Of a stretch of 64,000 nucleotides of DNA, positions 31,784 through 55,308 are shown in pieces (position 1 is the first letter of the stretch; every line of letters begins with the position of its first letter). The position numbers and the translations under genes were made by a program. Source of the stretch: Candidatus Hermodarchaeota archaeon (GTDB taxonomy: Archaea > Asgardarchaeota > Thorarchaeia > Thorarchaeales > Thorarchaeaceae); the NCBI GenBank assembly GCA_048885865.1, contig JBHLLF010000004.1:32001-96000 (forward strand), written 5' to 3'. Below the pieces are notes generated by a model. It made no database searches and was not told the origin of the DNA. It saw nothing but the letters and a program-made list of their open reading frames with translations.

Positions 31784-32326
31784 TTATTCCAATCTCTGAT
31801 GTTCATTCATTATCTCAGCTTGAACCTTTACAATCTCTGAGCTATTGGTACATGATGCATAGGAGTCTAACCATTCTCTGTTCAGTGTAATGAATGAAGG
31901 CCCCCACTTAAAGACGGACAATATGTCATCAGCGCCATCAATGTCGCCAAGAATATAGAGTGCAGCGGCAATAGCTTCCGCTGTTGAGAGCTTAATCGGT
32001 TTATACGTATTGATTGGATTGGCTGCGATTAGGTATGGAAGAGATCTTTGGTTGTCTCCTCGAGATCTGTTGAAGACTGCTTCGGCTTGCTTCCAAGAAC
32101 AGTCTAATGCAACCAAGCCTGATCTGTGCACGTATTCATAGTCAGCAGGAGAGAATGCTATTTCTGACACAGGATTGAGAACCACAGCACCTCTAGGAGT
32201 TCGTCGTAGGTCCTTGACTATCGTTGCTCTTTTCATTCTACCTAAGCGTAATCCAGTGCATTTCTTTGGGTCACATTGTGCAGCGTGATAGATGATGATT
32301 CTTGGGGAATTGAAACTGCGCTCCAT
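31784..32326 (-). CDS. tsr3: rRNA aminocarboxypropyltransferase Tsr3 (DUF367)
   Basis: QCDPKKCTG, ALDCSW, RSLPYLIAANPIN, LSTAEAIAAAL, FKWG. Confidence 0.94.
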   Translation of the reverse strand: MERSFNSPRIIIYHAAQCDPKKCTGLRLGRMKRATIVKDLRRTPRGAVVLNPVSEIAFSPADYEYVHRSGLVALDCSWKQAEAVFNRSRGDNQRSLPYLIAANPINTYKPIKLSTAEAIAAALYILGDIDGADDILSVFKWGPSFITLNREWLDSYASCTNSSEIVKVQAEIMNEHQRLE

Positions 32327-49719: not shown

Positions 49720-50310
49720 ATGGAGCCAACAGTTTTCCACATTCAGAAAGGCCGCCTGGTGAGAATGAAAGACCCAGGCGCATTTGGGAGAGGTGACTGC
49801 TATCTCGTTGATGCAGGTCCCAAAATCTATCTCTGGATAGGTCCCAACTCCTCAGTTGATGAGAAGTTCCTCACTGCAGCATCGGCAGTCTTCAAGGACA
49901 CCGAAAGAAAAGGTCATGCTGACATTGATCGGATTGATGGAGGTCAAGAACCTGACGAGTTCAAGGCACTCTTTGATGACTTCCAGCTGACTGATGAAGA
50001 TACAGAAGGCATCCTGAAGAAAGTGCAACTGGAAACCCATGAACACAGACTATGGAGAGTCCATCGTGAAGGAGATGAAACATATTTCGCTGAGGTCCCT
50101 GTGACCCGAGATTCGTTAAGGAGCGATGATGTATTCCTCCTAGATGCATGGGATGACATCTATGTCTGGCGAGGGTCGGATGCTAGTGCCAGAGAGAAGT
50201 TCGATGGTACAATTCTCGCTAGGCAATACGATGCGGAAAGAGTGGGAGTTCAAGAGATAGAACTCATTGAGGAAGGAAGTGAACCAGACGATTTCTGGAG
50301 GTCCTTCTGA
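49720..50310 (+). CDS. Two-domain gelsolin (Asgard 2DGel-type actin regulator)
   Basis: Repeats FGRGDCYLVDAGPKIYLWIG and LRSDDVFLLDAWDDIYVWRG; linker LKKV; acidic EEGSEPDDFW end. Confidence 0.92.
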   Translation: MEPTVFHIQKGRLVRMKDPGAFGRGDCYLVDAGPKIYLWIGPNSSVDEKFLTAASAVFKDTERKGHADIDRIDGGQEPDEFKALFDDFQLTDEDTEGILKKVQLETHEHRLWRVHREGDETYFAEVPVTRDSLRSDDVFLLDAWDDIYVWRGSDASAREKFDGTILARQYDAERVGVQEIELIEEGSEPDDFWRSF

Positions 50311-50321
50311 CCATATGGCCT

Positions 50322-51761
50322 TTACACCAGCCTATAATGACCGACTCGGGGTTCGTAGAGAACCCCGCTATCTTTCATCTTCTCTAGTGCTTCAGCTGCA
50401 ACATGTCGTTCTACACCAGCCTCTGCAGCAATCTCGTCCAATGTAGGACCAAGGAATCCACTTGCGCCAGTGTCCAGCTTCTTCAAAGCGCGAAGTACCT
50501 TAGTGTTGAACCTGTGAATTGGTCGATCCTTGCCCCAATCTCGTTCAGTCTCACTCTTGAGTTGAGTGAGTTCCATGAATTCCTTCAACGCGGGCTCGAG
50601 CACTCTGTCCCACGATCGTTTGATATCTGCAGTTGCTATCTTATCTTTCCAATATGCCCTTGCTGTAGAACGGGCAAGTCGTATTGCTCCAAGGGGCCTT
50701 CCATAAGCATCTGCATCCAAGATATGGCCTCTAGCAAATGCAGAGTCGTCAAGCCCAAAGCTCTCCTTTAGACCTTCTAGCTTGGACAGGATGTGCCTTG
50801 TGCTAGACTCAATACTCCGCTTTGATATCGCAGGGGTCATCATTTGAAAAGTAATTGCTGACTTTAGTATCGGGAGCCTGAGATGGGATGGGTTTGTGGT
50901 TTCAATCCAGAAGTCCTCTGATGCCAAAGCAATCGGCACATCAGGCAAGGCCGCGGTTTCTTGAGTTGTGAGGGCGCCCAAGGAAACCTCCCTAAAACCA
51001 GATCTATCTTGCCGACTCACACAAAGCTCTTCCATTCCCTTTTTGCCAGGATGCCCAATGTCCAGTCTCCATATCCGGGGAGTGGACACCCTGATGCCAC
51101 TCACGTTCCGAGTTTCAGCCCACTTTCCGCGAAAGGTAGCGGGCAAGATTTGACTCATGAACCTCATTAGTCGTTGAACCTGGCGTTTGGACGCTATTGC
51201 TTGAATTCCTGCGGTAAGACCTCCGATACTCTCCTGAAAGGGAGGGCTTGATACAAATAGACGAGCGAACACCTGCTTGCTCGCTTCAGCCATACCGACA
51301 TTTTCAAACAAGAGACGAGAGAGACCCGTGAGATTCATAGGCGGATGTATGTCTGCTAGATAATCTTCTGTCGATTGCTCAAAGAAGTCTGCCAATATTG
51401 CGGCTGGAGAAGGCTTGCTATGTTCCAGGTAGTCTGGAAAAGCAATCCGTTTACCTGTGACCTCAATCCTTGCACCTTCATCAGGGGGTTCAACATCATC
51501 AGGCAGTTGGACGAAAATACCTTCAACTAGCCATGGACTTGGGGTCAGAAGAATGCGATACTTATCAGAGGTGTATCGAACAAACCCATGATAGTGATAT
51601 CTAGCTCCGGATAATCGATGCGTGAACTGCTGTTGCAGCTCAAGCTCCCATTTAGCCAGCTCAGAACCAAATTGTCGGTTGAAGACATCACTCGCTGCAC
51701 TCACATCTGACAGCCTATCTTCTGATTTGCCAAGAAGGTTGTAGATGTCTTCAACGCTCAT
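50322..51761 (-). CDS. Degenerate MCM-like protein (OB fold, Walker-less AAA+, lid, winged helix)
   Basis: IFVQLPDD...EGARIEVTG (MCM OB), RLMRFMSQILP, GAIRLARSTARA...TADIKR (lid), ALEKMKDSGVLYEPRVGHYRLV (MCM C-terminal WH); GGAGG RBS. Confidence 0.7.
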   Translation of the reverse strand: MSVEDIYNLLGKSEDRLSDVSAASDVFNRQFGSELAKWELELQQQFTHRLSGARYHYHGFVRYTSDKYRILLTPSPWLVEGIFVQLPDDVEPPDEGARIEVTGKRIAFPDYLEHSKPSPAAILADFFEQSTEDYLADIHPPMNLTGLSRLLFENVGMAEASKQVFARLFVSSPPFQESIGGLTAGIQAIASKRQVQRLMRFMSQILPATFRGKWAETRNVSGIRVSTPRIWRLDIGHPGKKGMEELCVSRQDRSGFREVSLGALTTQETAALPDVPIALASEDFWIETTNPSHLRLPILKSAITFQMMTPAISKRSIESSTRHILSKLEGLKESFGLDDSAFARGHILDADAYGRPLGAIRLARSTARAYWKDKIATADIKRSWDRVLEPALKEFMELTQLKSETERDWGKDRPIHRFNTKVLRALKKLDTGASGFLGPTLDEIAAEAGVERHVAAEALEKMKDSGVLYEPRVGHYRLV

Positions 51762-51820
51762 TGCCTGGCCTCCAAGCTATTCATCTGTTATCGTTCACAT
51801 TCGTAATCATGTGCAACGAT

Positions 51821-52819
51821 TTACCTTTTCTCCTCCTTCTCTCTTCGAAGGTACTCACGATAGGCGATTGGATATTCCTCCGCCAGCTCTTCGATTGTTG
51901 GAAGACGACTGGCATAAGGAGTATAGGATTCGCCTTGTGTCACTGAGGATATTTCAGAGTCAATCACTGGCTTGAGCCTCTCGTTAATCTCATAACCGAT
52001 ATAGTGCCTCCAGCTAGACCTAGCAGCAACAGCTGTGGTGCCATTGCCCATGAAAGGATCAAGAATTAGGTCTCCGGGCTTAGAGGAGTAGTCAATGCAT
52101 CTGGCAACTACTTCTAAAGGAAGTTTAGTGCTGTTCTTGATTTCCCTGGCTCTATACCTGCGTTTTACTGGCCATACATCCTCAGGATAGTGTTCTATCT
52201 TGTTGAAGAAGTAACTTCTTAGATTCTTGACCAATAGCAGGACATGGTAATGACTAGTGACGAATCGCCTCTTGGTGAATACTCCGAATGGATAGTGCCA
52301 GACAATGTGATTCAGTGTGGAGAGTCCAACCTCTCTTGCACTTCTCAACACGGGTTCTAGATTCGTCCACCCACTGAAAATGTAGACAGATCCCTCCTCC
52401 TTGAGAACTCGTGGCAACTCGCCGATCCATCTTTTCGTGAATTCAACATAGGATCCATTTACTTCTTCATAGTCTTCTACAACTAGCCGCTCATCTCTGT
52501 TGTATACACTACTCTTCCCGTTGAAATCAATACCAAATGGAGGATCAGCTATAACTAGGTCAATGGAACCTTCTGGAAGCTCTCCCATGCCCTGAATGCA
52601 GTCCTCATAGAGTACTGTGTTTAACTCAAATTCCTGCACCGCTCCAACACGAGCATCATAGAGTGCTCTGGCCTCATCTATTGACCAGTCATAGGTGGGT
52701 TCAAAGTAGAACTCAGCAAGATTCGGTATGTACCGTTTTGACCGCCGCCGAGCAGGTGATTTTTCTTCTCCTTCTTCAGAGTGGACTGTCATAAGGAGTC
52801 TCGCTCCTTTGTCACTCAT
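51821..52819 (-). CDS. Orphan amino (N4-C/N6-A) DNA methyltransferase, beta class
   Basis: Motif IV IADPPF precedes motif I LDPFMGNGTT; STKLP; YIGYEIN. Confidence 0.92.
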   Translation of the reverse strand: MSDKGARLLMTVHSEEGEEKSPARRRSKRYIPNLAEFYFEPTYDWSIDEARALYDARVGAVQEFELNTVLYEDCIQGMGELPEGSIDLVIADPPFGIDFNGKSSVYNRDERLVVEDYEEVNGSYVEFTKRWIGELPRVLKEEGSVYIFSGWTNLEPVLRSAREVGLSTLNHIVWHYPFGVFTKRRFVTSHYHVLLLVKNLRSYFFNKIEHYPEDVWPVKRRYRAREIKNSTKLPLEVVARCIDYSSKPGDLILDPFMGNGTTAVAARSSWRHYIGYEINERLKPVIDSEISSVTQGESYTPYASRLPTIEELAEEYPIAYREYLRREKEEKR

Positions 52820-52862: not shown

Positions 52863-53951
52863 TTACATGAGTTCTGACGGGTCGACTCCTCTTGAAATCG
52901 CTTTTCCTGTCATCCAGTCCATGAATTTCTCCGGTGGTACCTTTTCACCCCTATCCGGTCGTGCCCCAAGGTGAAGAGCATCCTCAGGGCATGATATGGC
53001 ACATACTCCGCATCCAACACAGCGATCTGCATTTACAACACTAATGTCCTCAGGAACATCAAGTGCCGCAAATTGACATCTATCCACACATGTGCCGCAC
53101 CCTGTGCAAAGGTCATTATCGACCTCAATCATGAAGTCTGATTTGACGAATGCGTAGGGCTGATCATGCTGCGTCAGTCCTCTTAGTACACCGCAACAGC
53201 AGGTACAGCAGTTGCAGATGTATGTCTGACCGGTCTGAATATTCATACTGCAGTGAACAAGTCCAGCCTCCTCTGCATCTTTCAGAATTTTCAAGGCTTC
53301 CTCTTTGGTGACTACTTTCGTCAGCTCGTCATCATCATAGGCATTCTCTTTCTTGGGAGCAAACATGAGACAAACAGAAGTCGGGTATTTGCAGGGCTCA
53401 CCCACAAGTTCTTTCTGCCTCTTACAGATACACTCCCTTACACCCCATGACTTTGCGGTTTCAATGAGATGCTCCGCCCTCTCATATGGATAGATCTCAA
53501 GGTCAGTTTCCACAGCGCTGTTGACGGGTATTACCTTGAAGATGGGAGGATCTGTAGAGAACATATCGCCAATTCCTTTCGCTGCATTGTAATAGTCCTC
53601 ATAAAGCTGGGCAAACTCCTTGTCCATTCTGCCTAGCTGCTCTTCGTATATTCCTACAGCAAACGGAATCAGAGCGTATCTTCTTCCAGTGCTGGAATTC
53701 CAAGCACGAATCTGGCCTTTATGTGCCATTGTTTCCAATTGTTCCTTTAGAGCCGCAGGATCCCGGTCGAGTCGGGTACCTAGGTCTTCAATGGTTTCAC
53801 CCATCAGCTTCATCTGGCTAGCCAAATCGGCTTCAGACTCCTCAAAAATCCACTTGAGTAGCCTGATGTGACTCCTATCTGGGACCGGGGGAAACCCATT
53901 TGGGATTTTATCTAGTGTTGCTGCAAGTCGTTCATATGCTTCATCTGACAT
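52863..53951 (-). CDS. Multi-Cys Fe-S protein with C-terminal 2[4Fe-4S] ferredoxin domain
   Basis: ECICK, GLVH, ICNCCTCCCGVL, CTGCGTCVDRC, CVGCGVCAISCP. Confidence 0.88.
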   Translation of the reverse strand: MSDEAYERLAATLDKIPNGFPPVPDRSHIRLLKWIFEESEADLASQMKLMGETIEDLGTRLDRDPAALKEQLETMAHKGQIRAWNSSTGRRYALIPFAVGIYEEQLGRMDKEFAQLYEDYYNAAKGIGDMFSTDPPIFKVIPVNSAVETDLEIYPYERAEHLIETAKSWGVRECICKRQKELVGEPCKYPTSVCLMFAPKKENAYDDDELTKVVTKEEALKILKDAEEAGLVHCSMNIQTGQTYICNCCTCCCGVLRGLTQHDQPYAFVKSDFMIEVDNDLCTGCGTCVDRCQFAALDVPEDISVVNADRCVGCGVCAISCPEDALHLGARPDRGEKVPPEKFMDWMTGKAISRGVDPSELM

Positions 53952-53976: not shown

Positions 53977-55308
53977 TTATGGGCATTCCAATGTAATTCC
54001 TAGAGGGCTTAGTTCCTCATTGACTTTGACTAGGGTTTCTTGGCAGCTATGACCTTTGCCTAGCAGCACATGCGTCAAGGTCATCTGATATGGTGGCAGA
54101 AAGGGAATATCACTGGTGTTTAAAATGCTCTGGTATTCGTGTCTTATCTTCTCATCCTGGAGAAAGGCTTCCATTTGCGGTAGAGTGCTCCCATTCTCCA
54201 ATAGCATGTTTCTGATTTTTTCTAGGAAAAGGTCCTTTGGAACATTTACAGACTCTCCGTAGAGCCGTTTGACATTCTTCTCAAACCATTCACGAACTCG
54301 ATCAACTCTGCAATATGGAAGTACCACTACCTCTTCTTCACCATAAGGCATTATGCGGACAAGGCTTCTCTTCTCCGCAGAGAATACAAAATCGGGCAGA
54401 TTACTGAAGCCTACTTCTGAGATGTCCAAGCCTCTTTCTTGGAGTTCTTCATTTAGTTTGGGTAATGTGAAAGGGTGTCCTTCGTCAATTCCTTCCTCGA
54501 CTACCCGAACAAGGAAGTCAAACGCCTCTCTATTCTCTTCAGAGAGTTTCGACATCTCATCTGAGAGCGTGTCAGGGAGCTTCAAAATAGTCCCTGGTAG
54601 TTCTCCCTCCTTGACGATGTAGCCCTCAGATTCAGCCCATCCAACAAACTCATTCCAACTCAGAAATCCGAGCTCTCTCTCGTTAAAGCCTGGATTGAGT
54701 GAGGAAATGACATACTTCACATTTCCAATGCCTGGCTTATTCCCTGCCTCTATTATTGTCTGGATTGCATCATGAAGCTTCCCGCCCATAATGCGTCGCA
54801 TCTCAGTGATGCTTCGAACTCGCTCTTTGCAATCTCCGACATCAGGACAGTCCAATGAGATTCTCCTGAAAGAATGTATGTCAGTATACTTGGTTGCCAA
54901 GTCAGTGAGCTCGCTTGCCGTGATGATTGGATTACTTATGATCCAAAGACCAAGCCCGCGTTGCCGAATTGCTCCTGCAATGAGCTTGAAATCGCCATCA
55001 CCTGTGATCATGACATAGCAGGTTGTTTCGGGGTAATGGACCATATGATCCATGATGTATGCGGCCATCTTGTAATCCGCAGCATTGTCTCTGCTATCAG
55101 GCACATGGATTACATCGTAGCCTAGGTTATGTAGCTCCTCCGCCATCCGTCTTCGATTAGTCCAATCAGCAAAGGCGTAAGCCTTGACGAGTGTTCCAGC
55201 TTCACGAATCCTATCAGTCAACTCTCTATGTGTGCCAAAGTCTTCATGGACGTTCTCAAAGTCCCAGAAGACAGAGAGATGATTTCTGGATTCAGCATCA
55301 GACATCAA
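53977..55308 (-). CDS. NYN (PIN-like) ribonuclease with LOTUS/OST-HTH domains
   Basis: VFWDFENV, NAADYKM, ITGDGDF; NPGFNERELGFLSW and LDISEVGFSNL LOTUS-like motifs. Confidence 0.85.
   Translation of the reverse strand: MMSDAESRNHLSVFWDFENVHEDFGTHRELTDRIREAGTLVKAYAFADWTNRRRMAEELHNLGYDVIHVPDSRDNAADYKMAAYIMDHMVHYPETTCYVMITGDGDFKLIAGAIRQRGLGLWIISNPIITASELTDLATKYTDIHSFRRISLDCPDVGDCKERVRSITEMRRIMGGKLHDAIQTIIEAGNKPGIGNVKYVISSLNPGFNERELGFLSWNEFVGWAESEGYIVKEGELPGTILKLPDTLSDEMSKLSEENREAFDFLVRVVEEGIDEGHPFTLPKLNEELQERGLDISEVGFSNLPDFVFSAEKRSLVRIMPYGEEEVVVLPYCRVDRVREWFEKNVKRLYGESVNVPKDLFLEKIRNMLLENGSTLPQMEAFLQDEKIRHEYQSILNTSDIPFLPPYQMTLTHVLLGKGHSCQETLVKVNEELSPLGITLECP

Follow-up and report, generated by a model that had tools for sequence, protein, structure and literature searches.

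A shortened, probably ATPase-dead MCM paralogue carried by Thorarchaeal genomes

What would a protein do that is built like the helicase MCM, domain by domain, once the elements with which MCM binds and hydrolyses ATP have gone? Accounts of archaeal MCM usually describe one active homohexamer. The question is raised by a gene for a protein of 479 aa, here called pseudo-MCM, that lies in a 64,000-nucleotide stretch of DNA (the window) from a Candidatus Hermodarchaeota archaeon of the Thorarchaeaceae, namely positions 32,001 to 96,000 of contig JBHLLF010000004.1 in assembly GCA_048885865.1. An earlier note on this DNA had read the product as a catalytically dead MCM paralogue, and our analysis supports that reading, with an OB fold, AAA+ core, lid and winged helix predicted in MCM order and the ATP motifs lost. 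Judged largely by a predicted structure, pseudo-MCM is very probably derived from MCM and unable to bind or hydrolyse ATP in the way that MCM does. Overall, we consider it likely that the best explanation is a compacted, catalytically dead MCM paralogue acting as a non-enzymatic binding module.

Predicted structure and fold searches

The gene is a single, uninterrupted open reading frame running from an ATG start to a TAA stop (product P0001):

50322..51761, minus strand: whole gene, probable ATPase-dead MCM paralogue (open reading frame, full-length orthologues at 57-95% identity, AlphaFold 2 model, MCM as top match in Foldseek and VIA searches)

Nothing in the product exceeded a Pfam threshold, including those of the MCM families PF00493, PF17207 and PF17855, and no NCBIfam model matched. 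Weak winged-helix matches below the threshold covered residues 435-478, among them MCM_WH_arc (expectation value, E, 0.16), which was also the commonest Pfam match among family members (6/22, every one below the cut-off); MCM_lid was matched by one of these 22 (E 0.03).

A first AlphaFold 2 (AF2) model from 19 Thorarchaeal sequences reached a mean predicted local distance difference test score (pLDDT) of 58, with values below 50 in the centre, and was set aside for a model based on 78 sequences. To the Thorarchaeal sequences, the larger alignment added a large clade from the Bathyarchaeia and the distant relatives, at 18-35% identity, that an exhaustive phmmer search had found; without templates, it yielded a pLDDT of 87.0 and a predicted template modelling score (pTM) of 0.84. 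The resulting model consists of a six-strand beta-barrel (residues 46-132), two helices (144-170), an alpha/beta core (183-305), a helical lid (314-369), a long helix (377-409) and a winged helix (420-478). On this model, pseudo-MCM has the domain order of MCM, that is, OB fold, AAA+ core, lid and C-terminal MCM-type winged helix.

The structural check proposed in the earlier note came out clearly, the top matches in fold searches of the predicted model all being MCM. Each of the 50 best PDB matches listed by Foldseek was a subunit of MCM, with E between 2.9e-13 and 1.9e-10, a probability of 1.00 and 420-568 columns aligned, and re-alignment of the model to MCMs with VIA gave Z scores of 17-19.3. 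Compared with MCM ATPase tiers, the predicted core showed an MCM-type AAA+ fold, with Z 17-18 and a root-mean-square deviation (rmsd) of 3.4-3.5 Å over 214-220 residues; examples are the isolated tier 8q6p_7 (Z 18.1, 3.5 Å over 220 residues), 6sko_7 (Z 17.6, 3.4 Å over 220 residues, model residues 138-398) and the AAA+ domain of P. furiosus MCM, 4r7z_A (Z 17.2). A VIA search of 48,161 representative chains, independent of Foldseek, placed MCM2-7, archaeal MCM, MCM8/9 and M. kandleri MCM2 at ranks 1-11 (Z 13.3-16.9). The next families covered the core only: RavA (11.3), a MoxR-like ATPase (10.1), BchI (9.2), BrxL (9.0) and ComM (7.8).

A fold search of the ESM Atlas returned three unnamed archaeal clusters first and MCM families after them. 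A language-model search agreed with this; MCM-BP was among its neighbours, though weakly, with a score of 0.82 that lies below the 0.9 reliability mark and serves as a lead only. The three nearest Atlas clusters (464, 139 and 81 members) carry Methanobacteriota as their commonest label, at odds with the sequence searches, which gave a Thorarchaeal and Bathyarchaeial range. Either the family extends further into the Euryarchaeota, or the labels rest on few records.

Sequence relation to MCM

A PDB search with the single sequence gave a marginal MCM match only (E 0.12), and a profile from Thorarchaeal sequences alone reached MCM 8x7t at E 4.4e-4. With a profile from a diverse alignment (A2), S. 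solfataricus MCM (SsoMCM; 4fdg, residues 571-692) was found at E 4.8e-8, followed by 8x7t (5.9e-8), the isolated SsoMCM winged helix (2m45, 7.7e-7) and MCM8 (2e-4). Alignment of the 78-sequence family (A4) to 17 Asgard MCMs (A6) by hhalign matched residues 358-479 to MCM residues 567-691 (Prob 96.4%, E 1.2e-9). Run permissively and globally (mact 0.05), hhalign produced a collinear alignment of residues 21-479 with 77-689 at E 3.8e-9, a score owed to the C-terminus. In the same line, a family profile run over 301 Asgard genomes matched, with its positions 356-472, inside open reading frames of ~690 aa (longer with inteins), which are the canonical MCMs. The open frames of many canonical Asgard MCM genes (for example L052-L061) span 1000-2100 aa and show the Pfam MCM match in separate pieces, which fits intein-bearing MCMs.

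By these sequence matches, the last lid helix and the winged helix of pseudo-MCM are homologous to those of MCM. The likeness of the OB and AAA+ parts is one of fold, as predicted by the model; the best local alignments of the N-terminal and middle regions are collinear with MCM (first OB strand; helix after Walker A), which is suggestive but below significance. The MCM-like strings quoted in the earlier note are all present and in the order claimed: IFVQLPDD...EGARIEVTG at residues 82-103, ENVGMAEASKQVFARLF at 153-169, QRLMRFMSQILP at 196-207, ILKSAI..TPAISKRSIE at 298-318, GRPLGAIRLARSTARA...TADIKR at 354-382 and LEKMKDSGVLYEPRVGHY at 459-476. Their likeness to MCM held up for residues 358-479, both by profile and by hhalign, while the N-terminal and central strings have the support of the predicted fold only.

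The C-terminal motif G.IYEP..G.YR.V (residues 466-479) is nearer to the S. solfataricus and 8x7t MCMs than to the Asgard MCM consensus G.LFEPK.G.IK, a likeness that might hint at where the MCM duplication happened.

Domain anatomy and lost motifs

Seven parts were delimited along the protein:

51627..51761, minus strand: residues 1-45, N-terminal tail particular to the family, where MCM has subdomain A (low pLDDT over 1-30; most full-length MCM alignments begin at model residues 43-51)
51366..51626, minus strand: residues 46-132, minimal beta-barrel, predicted OB fold corresponding to MCM subdomain C, no Zn-finger insert (AF2 model)
51228..51365, minus strand: residues 133-178, predicted N-C linker and pre-AAA+ helices (ENVGMAEASKQVFARLF), ending in S171-S-P173-P (AF2 model)
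50832..51227, minus strand: residues 179-310, predicted degenerate, shortened AAA+ alpha/beta core (VIA against MCM ATPase tiers; column counts)
50646..50831, minus strand: residues 311-372, AAA+ lid with a sensor-2-like R355 in G-R-P-x-S and the MCM-like helix R361-L-A...A-R368 (hhalign from residue 358)
50526..50645, minus strand: residues 373-412, long helix joining the lid to the winged helix (helix 377-409; part of the region that hhalign and HMM match significantly to the C-terminus of MCM)
50325..50525, minus strand: residues 413-479, MCM-type C-terminal winged helix ending in ...GVLYEPRVGHYRLV (profile against PDB)

The tail contains three near-invariant residues (R29 in 74/78 members, G32 in 71/78, E39 in 74/78) and leaves room for only ~45 residues before the OB fold where subdomain A would stand. 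The predicted OB strands (47-51, 54-64, 69-73, 82-85, 98-107 and 120-129) superpose on the MCM N-terminal tier in all full-length matches, model residues 44-46 onward pairing with chain residues from ~107-150, at a sequence E of 0.09. The linker helices, at 144-151 and 159-170, are put by low-stringency hhalign on the MCM helix IYG.E.IK..I.L.LF, and the motif behind them is well conserved (S171 in 68/78, P173 in 70/78). In the core, the invariants are G180-G181, E258-x-S260 and L272-x-D274-x-P276. Conserved in the lid are R/K355 and P356 (77/78 each), R361 (69/78) and R368 (78/78); R355 is mapped to sensor 2 by low-stringency alignment only, while the RL.EA.AR helix, from residue 358, falls within the significant hhalign match.

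None of the elements with which MCM handles nucleotide could be recognized, just as the earlier note had claimed for Walker A, Walker B, the SRFD arginine finger and the Zn finger. The Walker A pattern G....GK[ST] occurs in 0/78 family members, pseudo-MCM included, and in the model the P-loop site has shrunk to three residues between strand 183-188 and helix 192-205, compared with an eight-residue P-loop in MCM. No conserved Walker B acid was found at residues 234-239, after the equivalent strand (231-236), and pseudo-MCM contains no IDEFDK. SRFD is likewise absent; the collinear position, in a part of the alignment of low confidence, is L272-x-D274-x-P276, which has no conserved Arg. No CxxC was seen in the nine family members checked, and a CxxC...CxxC zinc finger is impossible in pseudo-MCM, which has a single Cys in the whole protein. 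In the same genome, the canonical MCM (P0125), which is 691 aa long and encoded on another contig, shows GDPGTGKS, IDEFDK, SRFD and the invariant C144, C147, C166 and C169. Pfam MCM matched this genome at one further place, weakly (G000:C13:49299-49655, minus strand; E 4.2e-6, profile positions 54-175), within a 331-aa frame that probably encodes a different AAA+ ATPase from the same clade and not an MCM.

The core is also ~45 residues shorter than that of P0125. By the secondary structure of the model, helix 1 is separated from the Walker-B-equivalent strand by ~25 residues and helix 240-249 from strand 258-265 by eight, which would leave little or no room for the helix-2 insert (h2i) and pre-sensor-1 hairpins that translocate DNA. 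Subdomain A, Zn finger, P-loop, Walker B acids and arginine finger are lost in a gene that is under strong purifying selection.

Kept, in turn, are the sensor-2-like R/K355, the lid helix R361...R368 and the C-terminal ...YEP..G.YR motif. The family has invariants of its own, S171-S-P173, G180-G181, E258-x-S260, D274-x-P276 and P310, each directly before a core strand of the model; in a parallel sheet, they would lie opposite the nucleotide site, on what is the arginine-finger side in MCM. The regions from the core onward are basic, with median isoelectric points of 9.4 (core), 8.8 (lid) and 9.4 (winged helix).

Selection and distribution

The earlier note had named a decaying singleton as the finding that would speak against it. 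Pairwise ratios of nonsynonymous to synonymous substitution rates (dN/dS) among eight same-genus orthologues were 0.06-0.19 overall and 0.03-0.12 in the central domain without catalytic motifs, which rules out a decaying pseudogene. Nor is the gene a singleton: in a protein collection, full-length relatives formed more than 200 clusters, almost all of them 479-481 aa long, annotated 'hypothetical protein', from Thorarchaeota metagenome-assembled genomes (MAGs) and with identities down to 57%. A mobile element is disfavoured by the lack of a visible integrase and by a locus that, across the family, keeps its place between the same flanking genes (Fe-S, methyltransferase and gelsolin genes, see below). 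Two copies appeared broken, one Thorarchaeal (G155:C15:114799-116198, in two frames with one in-frame TGA) and one a Bathyarchaeial fragment (G688:C9:14139-14522, with TAG and TAA); they are either rare pseudogenes or assembly errors.

Occurrence was counted with a profile of the N-terminal and middle regions only (A5), which gives no cross-matches to canonical MCM:

Own Thorarchaeal family: 76/76 genomes, one copy each
Asgard family f26: 3/3 genomes, distant copies
Asgard families f15, f16 and f27: one genome each
Large Asgard families: 0/68, 0/28, 0/21, 0/19 and 0/11 genomes
Phylum of a Bathyarchaeial genome: 6/301 genomes
Class of that Bathyarchaeial genome: 8/151 genomes

Pseudo-MCM is a single-copy core gene of Thorarchaeal genomes. 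Mis-binning may explain the isolated copies in f16 and f27, whose contigs are short and whose profile scores exceed those of the Thorarchaeal copies. Members with a named source belong to Bathyarchaeia, Methanomethylicia and a MAG labelled Odinarchaeota. The 'Asgard' label of the earlier note is therefore too broad, as the gene was not found in four of the large Asgard families sampled (0/68, 0/28, 0/21 and 0/19) and members occur outside the Asgard archaea as well. A canonical MCM was present alongside pseudo-MCM in the source genome and in 4/4 other Thorarchaeal genomes checked, and a complete Bathyarchaeial chromosome carries pseudo-MCM together with one canonical MCM.

In a maximum-likelihood tree of 78 members, the Thorarchaeal sequences formed one clade (Shimodaira-Hasegawa-like approximate likelihood ratio test, SH-aLRT, 100), sister to a clade at 34% identity (99); Bathyarchaeia and Methanomethylicia grouped together (99), and internal branches were long. 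The midpoint split into an Asgard side and a side of the TACK archaea was weak (54). The family is old and patchily distributed, through losses and/or ancient transfers, and no Asgard-wide trait.

Comparison with known MCM proteins

Canonical archaeal MCMs (SsoMCM 4fdg/6mii, P. furiosus 4r7z, 8x7t and P0125) share the domain order of the model and are its best structural matches (Z 16-19); they also share significant homology of the last lid helix and winged helix, including the YEP..G.Y motif at the C-terminus. In contrast to these proteins of ~690 aa, pseudo-MCM has 479 aa, lacks subdomain A, Zn finger, Walker A/B and arginine finger, has a shorter core, stays below the Pfam thresholds for MCM, MCM_OB and MCM_lid, and carries family-specific invariant motifs that are not found in MCM.

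Eukaryotes have inactive relatives of two kinds. MCM-BP is a eukaryotic non-ATPase with a distant likeness to MCM that acts on MCM subunits. Its link to pseudo-MCM is the language-model score mentioned above, with no match to MCM_bind (PF09739) at E up to 1 among 22 family members. MCMDC2 and the mei-MCMs are MCM paralogues that kept the fold, lost catalytic residues and took on non-helicase roles in recombination. They are eukaryote-specific duplications of full-size MCMs, and nothing ties them phylogenetically to the archaeal pseudo-MCM, of which only ~120 residues can be aligned by sequence. For the mei-MCM complex, see PMC6553819.

Of the known proteins, an archaeal one comes closest. That archaeal MCM is normally active, as the earlier note stated, needs qualification, since an inactive archaeal homologue with natural internal deletions and a non-conserved Walker A is already known: M. 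kandleri MCM2 (MkaMCM2; PDB 3F8T; PMC2933578). It is similarly shortened (chain of 459 residues) and aligned with the pseudo-MCM model at Z 16.2 over 286 residues with 14% identity, a Z no better than that of canonical MCMs. MkaMCM2 is absent from the matches of the pseudo-MCM profile in the PDB, and the structural alignment ends at model residue 397, leaving the winged helix unmatched. Whereas MkaMCM2 is known from one organism, the pseudo-MCM family has hundreds of members in Thorarchaea, Bathyarchaeia and other lineages. A 2025 survey of the Asgard replisome reports MCM as mostly single-copy, and the word 'inactive' is absent from it (PMC12680538). Our literature search, whose reach left out most subscription journals, found no paper describing the pseudo-MCM family. 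Thus, inactive MCM relatives as such are already known, and what is added here is a large, unannotated family of dead MCM paralogues.

Possible roles

Without P-loop, arginine finger and translocation hairpins, pseudo-MCM would be no motor and would thus work by binding. Most likely, the basic surfaces of AAA+ core, lid and winged helix, together with the MCM type of that winged helix, would bind DNA and/or a partner in replication initiation or repair. Non-enzymatic binding of DNA or of a replication factor is favoured because the lid helix and the winged helix have stayed most MCM-like. In canonical MCM, the winged helix is a protein-interaction and regulatory module that Orc1/Cdc6 engages during loading. 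For this reason, MCM itself or Orc1/Cdc6 may be the partner, by analogy a tentative proposal to which we give rather less than even chances.

A more specific form of this proposal, and a somewhat less likely one, makes pseudo-MCM a dedicated partner of the canonical MCM ring, either as a poisoning or capping subunit or as an MCM-BP-like chaperone or unloader that docks through the face that carries the trans-acting residues in MCM; the earlier note preferred this reading. Fold and tiers as in MCM would suit such a partner, as would the intact MCM that was always present where checked, the retention of the sensor-2-like R/K355 and of the MCM lid helix, and the predicted position of the invariants G180-G181, E258/S260 and D274/P276, before core strands and on the arginine-finger side; the MCM-BP neighbour from the language-model search adds a lead. 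Weighing against it, no sequence link to MCM-BP was found, and pseudo-MCM was found in only 8/151 sampled Bathyarchaeia and is absent from most of the Asgard families sampled, all of which have MCM. Because its distribution is patchy while MCM is in all those lineages, pseudo-MCM is no general requirement of archaeal MCM.

More speculatively still, the whole family, with its deep Asgard-side and TACK-side branches, could be an old ATP-independent regulator of helicase loading or activity, whose winged helix competes for or bridges Orc1/Cdc6 while the former trans face docks on MCM. We think this unlikely. If true, it would be a prokaryotic functional counterpart of MCM-BP- or Cdt1-like control, previously thought to be a eukaryotic elaboration.

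Genomic neighbourhood

The following features surround the gene in the window:

51769..51773, minus strand: Shine-Dalgarno-like GGAGG, 7 nt 5' of the pseudo-MCM ATG and within the 59-nt gap after the methyltransferase gene (direct sequence reading)
51821..52819, minus strand: N6/N4 DNA methyltransferase (P0002; Pfam PF01555, E 2.7e-36), upstream of and co-directional with pseudo-MCM
52863..53951, minus strand: 4Fe-4S dicluster protein (P0003; Pfam Fer4), third member of the Thorarchaeal block
53977-55308, minus strand: protein of 443 aa, NYN ribonuclease domain at its N-terminus (E 1.1e-19) and a weak match to OST-HTH/LOTUS, upstream of the Fe-S gene
49720-50310, plus strand: two-domain gelsolin-repeat gene (PF00626, E 1.5e-30), convergent with pseudo-MCM, 11 nt between the stop codons

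The order Fe-S, methyltransferase, pseudo-MCM and gelsolin gene was found in 28/30 loci of the Thorarchaeal family, the other two being contig ends, and the 4Fe-4S gene lies upstream of the methyltransferase wherever the contig extends that far. In another genus (L065, L066), the methyltransferase gene overlaps the pseudo-MCM start by 14 nt. A scan for promoters and terminators yielded nothing exceeding shuffled sequences. We infer that pseudo-MCM is co-transcribed with the upstream methyltransferase gene. A four-gene unit that includes the NYN-LOTUS gene was rejected, as this gene is missing from that position in a genus at 58% identity (L065), which leaves the Fe-S, methyltransferase and pseudo-MCM genes as the conserved block. 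The gelsolin protein is 75-97% identical across the family, above its neighbours.

Such an arrangement invites a different role, in which Thorarchaeal pseudo-MCM would be a subunit that targets the neighbouring orphan N6/N4 methyltransferase to DNA or regulates it, in a replication-linked methylation module with the MCM-like body as its DNA- or fork-binding platform. Wherever a family contig extends far enough, the methyltransferase gene immediately precedes pseudo-MCM in the same direction, the short gap with its GGAGG and the overlap in another genus fit a close partnership, and both proteins diverge at like rates (57-64% versus 57-60% identity). Yet synteny within one family may be inheritance, the unrelated gelsolin gene being kept equally on the other side, and no methyltransferase was found near the gene in 13 loci outside the family, including the nearest clade (34% identity) and f26. 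The core function of pseudo-MCM therefore predates, and does not need, the methyltransferase, and we regard it as improbable that the Thorarchaeal protein also serves this enzyme.

At these 13 loci, no neighbour was recurrent and the pseudo-MCM gene usually stood alone. The sole replication-related neighbourhood seen, and an anecdotal one, is a Methanomethylicia locus (L068:4810-8788) with Orc1/Cdc6 ~550 bp downstream, convergent, and Cren7 upstream. One unlabelled locus, equally anecdotal, has ParB and a faint Exo5 near pseudo-MCM.

Weighing the assignment

Several results weigh against a dead MCM paralogue. By hhalign against MCM, residues 1-140 (E 0.09) and 138-310 (E 0.5) were both non-significant, and a profile of residues 1-350 matched zero PDB chains and zero Pfam families, so that the OB and AAA+ assignments stand on the predicted structure. 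Global template modelling scores (TM-scores) against full MCM chains were low (0.30-0.39) and the whole-chain rmsd was large (7-15 Å), which would reflect different inter-domain packing or an error of the model, the fits being good domain by domain. Residues were mapped onto the lost motifs by the permissive alignment (mact 0.05) and by secondary structure. Outside the Thorarchaea, there is no shared neighbour that would point to a function. Finally, there is a small chance that pseudo-MCM has a non-canonical nucleotide site.

The first of these points would fit an origin outside MCM, with pseudo-MCM as a relic of another AAA+ protein of the helix-2-insert clade (MoxR/RavA, Mg-chelatase or ComM) that has its own OB-like barrel and winged helix, or with an AF2 model biased towards MCM; RavA, MoxR-like ATPase, BchI and BrxL also fit the core (Z 9-11), and the shallow alignment gave a poor model (pLDDT 58). 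We hold this to be very unlikely. Only MCMs cover OB fold, core and lid together, with Z scores 2-8 units higher than for the next family; homology to the MCM lid helix and winged helix extends over the C-terminal 120 residues (E 1e-9); the domain order is that of MCM; and the central domain became confident only with the deeper, diverse, template-free alignment, which argues for a covariation signal of the family's own.

Least credible of all is that pseudo-MCM is still an enzyme, an NTPase or other catalyst with a non-canonical site made of its invariant residues (SSPP...GG, ExS, LxDxP, GRPxS): these are conserved to a degree usual for catalytic motifs, and the dead core has the lowest dN/dS of the three protein parts in most pairs, but there is no P-loop (three residues between strand 1 and helix 1), no glycine-rich motif in the 78 members and no conserved acidic pair after the Walker-B-equivalent strand, and in the model the invariants would sit at N-terminal strand ends, away from the nucleotide site of P-loop NTPases.

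Significance

Every sampled Thorarchaeal genome carries pseudo-MCM, a second, non-catalytic protein of predicted MCM fold under strong constraint, which points to an unstudied accessory layer of archaeal replication or repair. As a probable dead MCM paralogue, it would show how, in nature, an AAA+ motor can become a scaffold for binding. Because no Pfam or NCBIfam model exists for them, its relatives are annotated as 'hypothetical', and defining the family would improve the annotation of hundreds of genomes. Should MCM or Orc1/Cdc6 prove to be the target of pseudo-MCM, control through dead paralogues, as with MCM-BP, MCMDC2 and mei-MCM, would be no eukaryotic invention.

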